From Escherichia coli (GTDB lineage Bacteria; Pseudomonadota; Gammaproteobacteria; Enterobacterales; Enterobacteriaceae), in NCBI RefSeq assembly GCF_003334765.1, contig NZ_QOWT01000055.1: a stretch of DNA of 13,955 nucleotides, one strand, 5' to 3'. A program made the translations under genes and the position numbers. Below, one piece after another: positions 10,043-10,062 of the stretch. Positions within the stretch are counted from its first letter, which is position 1, and each line of letters starts with the position of its first letter. The notes under the pieces are model-generated. The model was not told the DNA's origin, made no database searches, and saw only the letters and a program-made list of their open reading frames with translations.

Positions 10043-10062
10043 TACTGTTTTTATATACAGTA
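10043..10062. promoter_or_regulatory. LexA box (SOS operator) upstream of sbmC
   Basis: TACTGTTTTTATATACAGTA fits the CTGT-N8-ACAG consensus exactly, 15 bp upstream of the sbmC start codon. sbmC is a known SOS-inducible gene. Confidence 0.7.

Follow-up and report, generated by a model that had tools for sequence, protein, structure and literature searches.

The 20-nucleotide sequence TACTGTTTTTATATACAGTA, which occupies exactly positions 10043-10062 of the window (the whole 13,955-nt stretch of DNA that was analysed), is almost certainly the LexA operator, or SOS box, of the gene sbmC (gyrI), where it would act by occluding the promoter. The assignment is supported by the match to the LexA consensus, by a weight matrix, by identity to the K-12 operator and by the occurrence of a corresponding site at 77 of 80 orthologous loci. 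The minus strand carries both sbmC and its promoter, and on this strand the operator reads TACTGTATATAAAAACAGTA, the reverse complement of TACTGTTTTTATATACAGTA; exactly 14 nt (10029-10042) lie between the box and the ATG codon of the gene (10028-10026). A sequence-only reading of the same DNA had placed a LexA box at these coordinates, immediately upstream of sbmC and 15 bp from the start codon; its position, sequence and gene assignments hold, whereas the 15 bp turns out to be a coordinate difference and the true gap is 14 nt. For E. coli, the SOS operator of sbmC is already known and nothing about it is new; the box is a catalogued operator that has been re-identified, without discovery value, and it serves as a positive control in which reading the sequence alone found a real and strong regulatory site at exact coordinates.

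The window is E. coli chromosome. Many complete chromosomes of the species match the 751 bp around sbmC with 100% identity, and their RefSeq annotation gives the same two genes, sbmC and dacD. The 157-residue product of sbmC, encoded on the minus strand at 9555-10028, is annotated in RefSeq as the DNA gyrase inhibitor SbmC (WP_001105393.1), and its Shine-Dalgarno sequence GGAGG (10033-10037, minus strand) is nearly invariant in the upstream alignment. The dacD coding sequence lies on the same strand at 10147-11313 in the RefSeq annotation, and its stop codon (10147-10149) bounds an intergenic region of 118 bp (10029-10146). That the box shares this short region with the 3′ end of dacD had been pointed out correctly in the sequence-only reading, which however left unmentioned that the region also contains the probable core promoter of sbmC and a published CRP-S site that responds to Sxy.

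The statistical strength of the box was assessed in two ways. A search of the whole window for the palindrome TACTG(TA)5CAGTA with up to three mismatches returned a single match, the sbmC box itself, with both arms perfect and two mismatches, both of them in the spacer. Shuffling the window 200 times with dinucleotide composition preserved yielded no match at all. The core CTGT-N8-ACAG alone was matched in 26 of the 200 shuffles and is hence weaker evidence. For the second approach, a weight matrix was built from 16 LexA sites of K-12 (PMC3009722 Table 4), with sbmC left out as well as umuD, whose 20-mer is the same as that of sbmC. The box scores 26.6 bits, level with the top training site (the 16 sites range from 16.2 to 26.7) and highest in the window, where the next best site reaches 11.8 bits; the best score among 200 shuffles was 20.6. 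A chance origin of the box is excluded by the shuffles of both the consensus and the matrix search. Two lower-scoring candidates, at 6893-6912 (11.8 bits) and 7155-7174 (9.9 bits), are not LexA sites, as they fall well under the range of the known sites and within the expectation from the shuffles.

The operator is also the one that has been published for K-12. There the SOS box of sbmC is tabulated as TATACTGTATATAAAAACAGTATCA with its first base at position 64 of the upstream 100 nt (PMC3009722 Table 4), and thus its core 20-mer stands 14 nt before the ATG in K-12. Both checks that had been proposed along with the original observation, the matrix scan and the comparison with the published operator, therefore bear it out, with the same 20-mer found at the same distance. 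In an alignment with MG1655, the box, the distance to the ATG, the CRP-S site and the flanking genes are all shared, and the two intergenic regions differ by three substitutions, none of them in the box: position 10072 in the promoter spacer is A in the window and T in K-12, and the two bases directly 3′ of the box (10042-10041) are AT in the window and TC in K-12. The intergenic version of the window is present at 99% identity or above in 1522 of the 5417 matching E. coli genomes. The AT flank creates a TAATAAT sequence that was considered as a new -10 element and rejected, because no -35 element is found at a workable spacing and the resulting start would fall into the Shine-Dalgarno region.

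Exactly the same 20-mer, TACTGTATATAAAAACAGTA, serves as the umuDC operator of E. coli (PMC3009722 Table 4), although the locus and the bases flanking the operator are unlike those of sbmC. The published heterology index is 2.1 for umuD and 2.8 for sbmC, the latter being among the lowest in the table (PMC11228462 Table 1). Unlike sbmC, umuDC is not known to have a CRP-S activator site.

The SOS induction of sbmC, which the sequence-only reading had treated as known, is well documented. The gene is tabulated as a classical SOS gene (PMC6590174) and is induced after UV (PMC3009722) and in multi-omics data that follow the SOS response over time (PMC11002266), and AZT raises its expression 5.7-fold with a 9.5-fold dependence on LexA cleavage, as determined with lexA3 (PMC11228462 Table 1). 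The Salmonella orthologue is likewise induced and has one box (PMC8072944). Culyba et al. reported that the activity of the sbmC promoter is biphasic, found no sigma-70 prediction for it and considered that another sigma factor might be involved (PMC5999292); the regulation of sbmC is therefore not by LexA alone.

The core promoter of sbmC probably overlaps the operator. A generic sigma-70 consensus scan did not call a promoter beside the box, and because of this the -10 element was assigned from a phylogenetic footprint. The candidate, CTATACT (10059-10065, minus strand), contains the hexamer TATACT at 10064-10059, and the LexA box starts with the last four bases of this hexamer (CTA-TACT-GTA...). 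A -10-like hexamer is found in the same alignment column in the genera Escherichia, Citrobacter, Salmonella, Enterobacter, Kluyvera and Leclercia, which also share a TGCGA-type site further upstream, either CRP-S or hybrid, and are referred to below as group A; it reads TATACT in E. coli, TACACT in Citrobacter and TATAGT in Enterobacter. A weak -35-like element, TTGTGG (10080-10085, minus strand), is suggested by a conserved TTG(T/C) column, and the spacer that would separate it from the -10 hexamer is 15 nt in E. coli and 17-18 nt in the other genera. A start at about 10052 is predicted from the -10 hexamer at 10064-10059. The UV-induced sbmC transcript detected by tiling array, for which the 100 nt upstream are given as AGGCCTGACC... 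(PMC3009722 Table 8), begins at about position 10054 of the window, within the limited resolution of the array. A sigma-54 promoter at CTGGCAGGAGTGCG was also considered and rejected, as the spacing from GG to GC read from the sequence is too short.

With a start at about 10052-10054, the LexA box would span approximately -10 to +10; it begins within the putative -10 element and covers the predicted start, so that bound LexA would be expected to block the open complex of RNA polymerase. Occlusion of the promoter is thus the most likely mode of action of LexA at sbmC, as judged from the arrangement of these elements. In undamaged cells, a LexA dimer bound to the two CTGT/ACAG arms would keep sbmC off. 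Upon DNA damage, RecA filaments would stimulate the self-cleavage of LexA, the operator would empty and sbmC would be transcribed, and its product would then protect or inhibit gyrase. The CTATACT sequence resembles the -10 element preferred by sigma-S. A -10 of this type suggests the use of sigma-S in stationary phase, which fits the stationary-phase induction of sbmC cited in PMC5999292.

The activating input to the promoter comes from the CRP-S site at 10100-10121 (minus strand), which is identified from its sequence, the alignment with K-12 and published work (PMC1635313) and is conserved in the group A loci. Its core TGCGAGTCTGCTCGCA (10103-10118) is a perfect palindrome of the form TGCGA-N6-TCGCA, and the 22-bp site has the hallmark C at position 6 and G at position 17. 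Cameron and Redfield described a CRP-S-like site at sbmC and found that its induction needs CRP, cAMP and Sxy (PMC1635313); Sxy induces the gene 6-fold, and the effect is abolished in a crp mutant, and also in a cyaA mutant unless cAMP is added (PMC1635313). The strength of the sbmC promoter is set by cAMP-CRP together with Sxy at this site. The centre of the site is 58 bp upstream of the centre of the LexA box, or about -58.5 from the predicted start; class I sites lie at about -61.5, and the spacing is consistent with the class I mechanism that PMC1635313 cites for sbmC from Zheng 2004. The class I CRP-S promoters of ppdD and yrfD have the TGCGA-N6-TCGCA core and the dependence on CRP and Sxy in common with sbmC (PMC1635313), whereas in sbmC a strong LexA operator also covers the probable core promoter, so that one promoter combines activation with SOS repression. 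The comparative data show clearly how a repressor site, a weak core promoter and an activator site are all fitted into one short stretch between two genes.

Two further features are present in the same part of the intergenic region. A stable hairpin is predicted in the 3′ UTR of dacD (10103-10137, minus strand; -26 kcal/mol, z = -3.3), the 3′ half of which coincides with the CRP-S core and which is followed by no U-tract. Among the loci scored, 32 retain its 7-bp stem. The stem is present in Escherichia, Enterobacter and Leclercia, in the last of these with a two-sided change, whereas the Citrobacter freundii group and Kluyvera have lost it. A scan called no intrinsic terminator in the region between sbmC and dacD, and Rfam gave nothing in the window at the gathering threshold. 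The sigma-70 scan did make a call on the minus strand at 10128-10099, CTGGCA-18-CATAAT, and across group A the segment CTGGCA(G/A)GAG is conserved 5′ of the CRP-S core and CATAAT is conserved 3′ of it (10099-10137, minus strand). The block may be a second promoter, a part of an extended CRP/Sxy site or a structure at an RNA 3′ end.

Alternatively, the LexA box could serve mainly as a transcriptional roadblock, with LexA stopping polymerase that has either read through from dacD or started at the CTGGCA-18-CATAAT sequence 40-60 nt upstream of the box. Such a role is improbable, although the presence of both hexamers on the strand of sbmC and their conservation in group A would agree with it, as would an intergenic region in which no terminator is called and the dacD hairpin lacks a U-tract. 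A promoter at this place overlaps the CRP-S site and would be repressed by CRP, but CRP activates sbmC (PMC1635313); moreover, the UV-induced start is found at about 10054 and not at about 10092, and every group A genus has a conserved TATACT-type hexamer directly next to the box. The conservation of CATAAT, for its part, may merely reflect the flank of the CRP site.

Less probable still, to the point of being barely credible, is that the palindrome governs a transcript made from the plus strand and entering the 3′ end of dacD in antisense, or that it is a chance palindrome in AT-rich DNA. The site is palindromic, and a TATAGT hexamer does occur on the plus strand at 10061-10066; however, no promoter was called on the plus strand and no matching -35 element is found there, and the shuffle tests of both kinds rule out chance. 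The box is further tied to sbmC by its fixed distance from the ATG of that gene in 77 of 80 species, and it still accompanies sbmC in E. coli MS 115-1, where dacD has been replaced by phage DNA. Occlusion of the sbmC promoter by LexA hence remains the preferred reading.

Conservation of the operator was followed in about 20 genera of enterobacteria, which together gave 80 sbmC loci, with one genome per species and 250 nt of upstream sequence each. At 77 of the 80 loci, the best match to the LexA matrix is found 14-24 nt ahead of the start codon, and 73 of these 77 score at least as high as the weakest K-12 training site. The spacers differ widely across the loci and the CTGT/ACAG arms persist, as would be anticipated if selection acts on a protein-binding site. 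In the three exceptions, a deletion in Escherichia sp. MOD1-EC7003 has removed the box after TACTG and kept the CRP-S site, the upstream sequence has been replaced at a locus of Klebsiella michiganensis, and the box of Intestinirhabdus is weaker and located 166 nt upstream.

The activator sites differ between lineages. In group A, the TGCGA-type site is centred 58-62 bp upstream of the centre of the box (58 bp in E. coli and 59-62 bp in the others), which would correspond to about -58.5 in E. coli and to -60.5 to -61.5 in most other genera and is consistent with class I geometry throughout. In the promoters of Klebsiella, Raoultella, Pluralibacter, Pseudocitrobacter and their relatives, a canonical TGTGA-N6-GCACA site stands instead, at a distance of 45-47 bp upstream of the centre of the box, and a -10-like hexamer, TAGATT or TACAGT, follows 21 nt after the CRP core; the predicted position of this CRP site, about -41.5, points to class II geometry. 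The left arm of the LexA box is weaker in the Klebsiella-type promoters, with ATGT as compared to CTGT, and most of them score 11.5-20 bits (subset L046-L075); the Pseudocitrobacter loci have a perfect CTGT arm and score 24.6 bits. A tentative proposal, to which somewhat less than an even chance is given, is that control of sbmC by LexA is universal in the Enterobacteriaceae, with the activator input rewired from one lineage to another. If this is true, the coupling between the gyrase protector and the competence regulator Sxy would be specific to particular lineages. A limited literature search found no description of such a lineage comparison of the sbmC activator sites, and the contrast between group A and the Klebsiella-type promoters may be the only part of the present analysis that is undescribed, and a modest one.

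Natural variants of the promoter were also encountered within E. coli. In strain E47, an ISL3-family element, ISKox3 (locus L084, 2591-3922), is inserted in the AT-rich spacer of the LexA box at a point equivalent to about position 10049 of the window, flanked by an 8-bp target duplication, ATATAAAA; the two half-sites are split and the native -10 element is separated from sbmC. In MS 115-1, phage DNA with a Gp27-family gene stands in place of dacD and the CRP-S site, and the LexA box and the -10 element remain with sbmC. The insertion in the box, the deletion of the box and the swap of the CRP site type are potential ready-made regulatory mutants.

Elsewhere in the window, only the first approximately 49 nt of sbcB remain (11522-11570), and the gene is interrupted by a lambdoid prophage, one end of which makes up the sequence from about 11571 to 13955. 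The prophage end shares 95.6% identity with the sequence of phage mEp234 described as 'prophage attachment site (type 2851)' and 91.5% with the ends of the Stx2c phages 2851 and 1717, and it carries a tail-fibre assembly gene at the window edge. At the opposite side, positions 1-7700 form a CP4-44-like island with genes for a GTPase, a dynamin-family protein (671-3067), an RdcB-family protein, an antirestriction protein, RadC/YeeS, CbeA/CbtA and YeeW. Compared to the island of strain TC_EC10, the window is without 2854 bp at 3852/3853, and the deletion leaves one open reading frame of 467 residues (3064-4467), which starts as an RdcB-family protein and crosses the junction.
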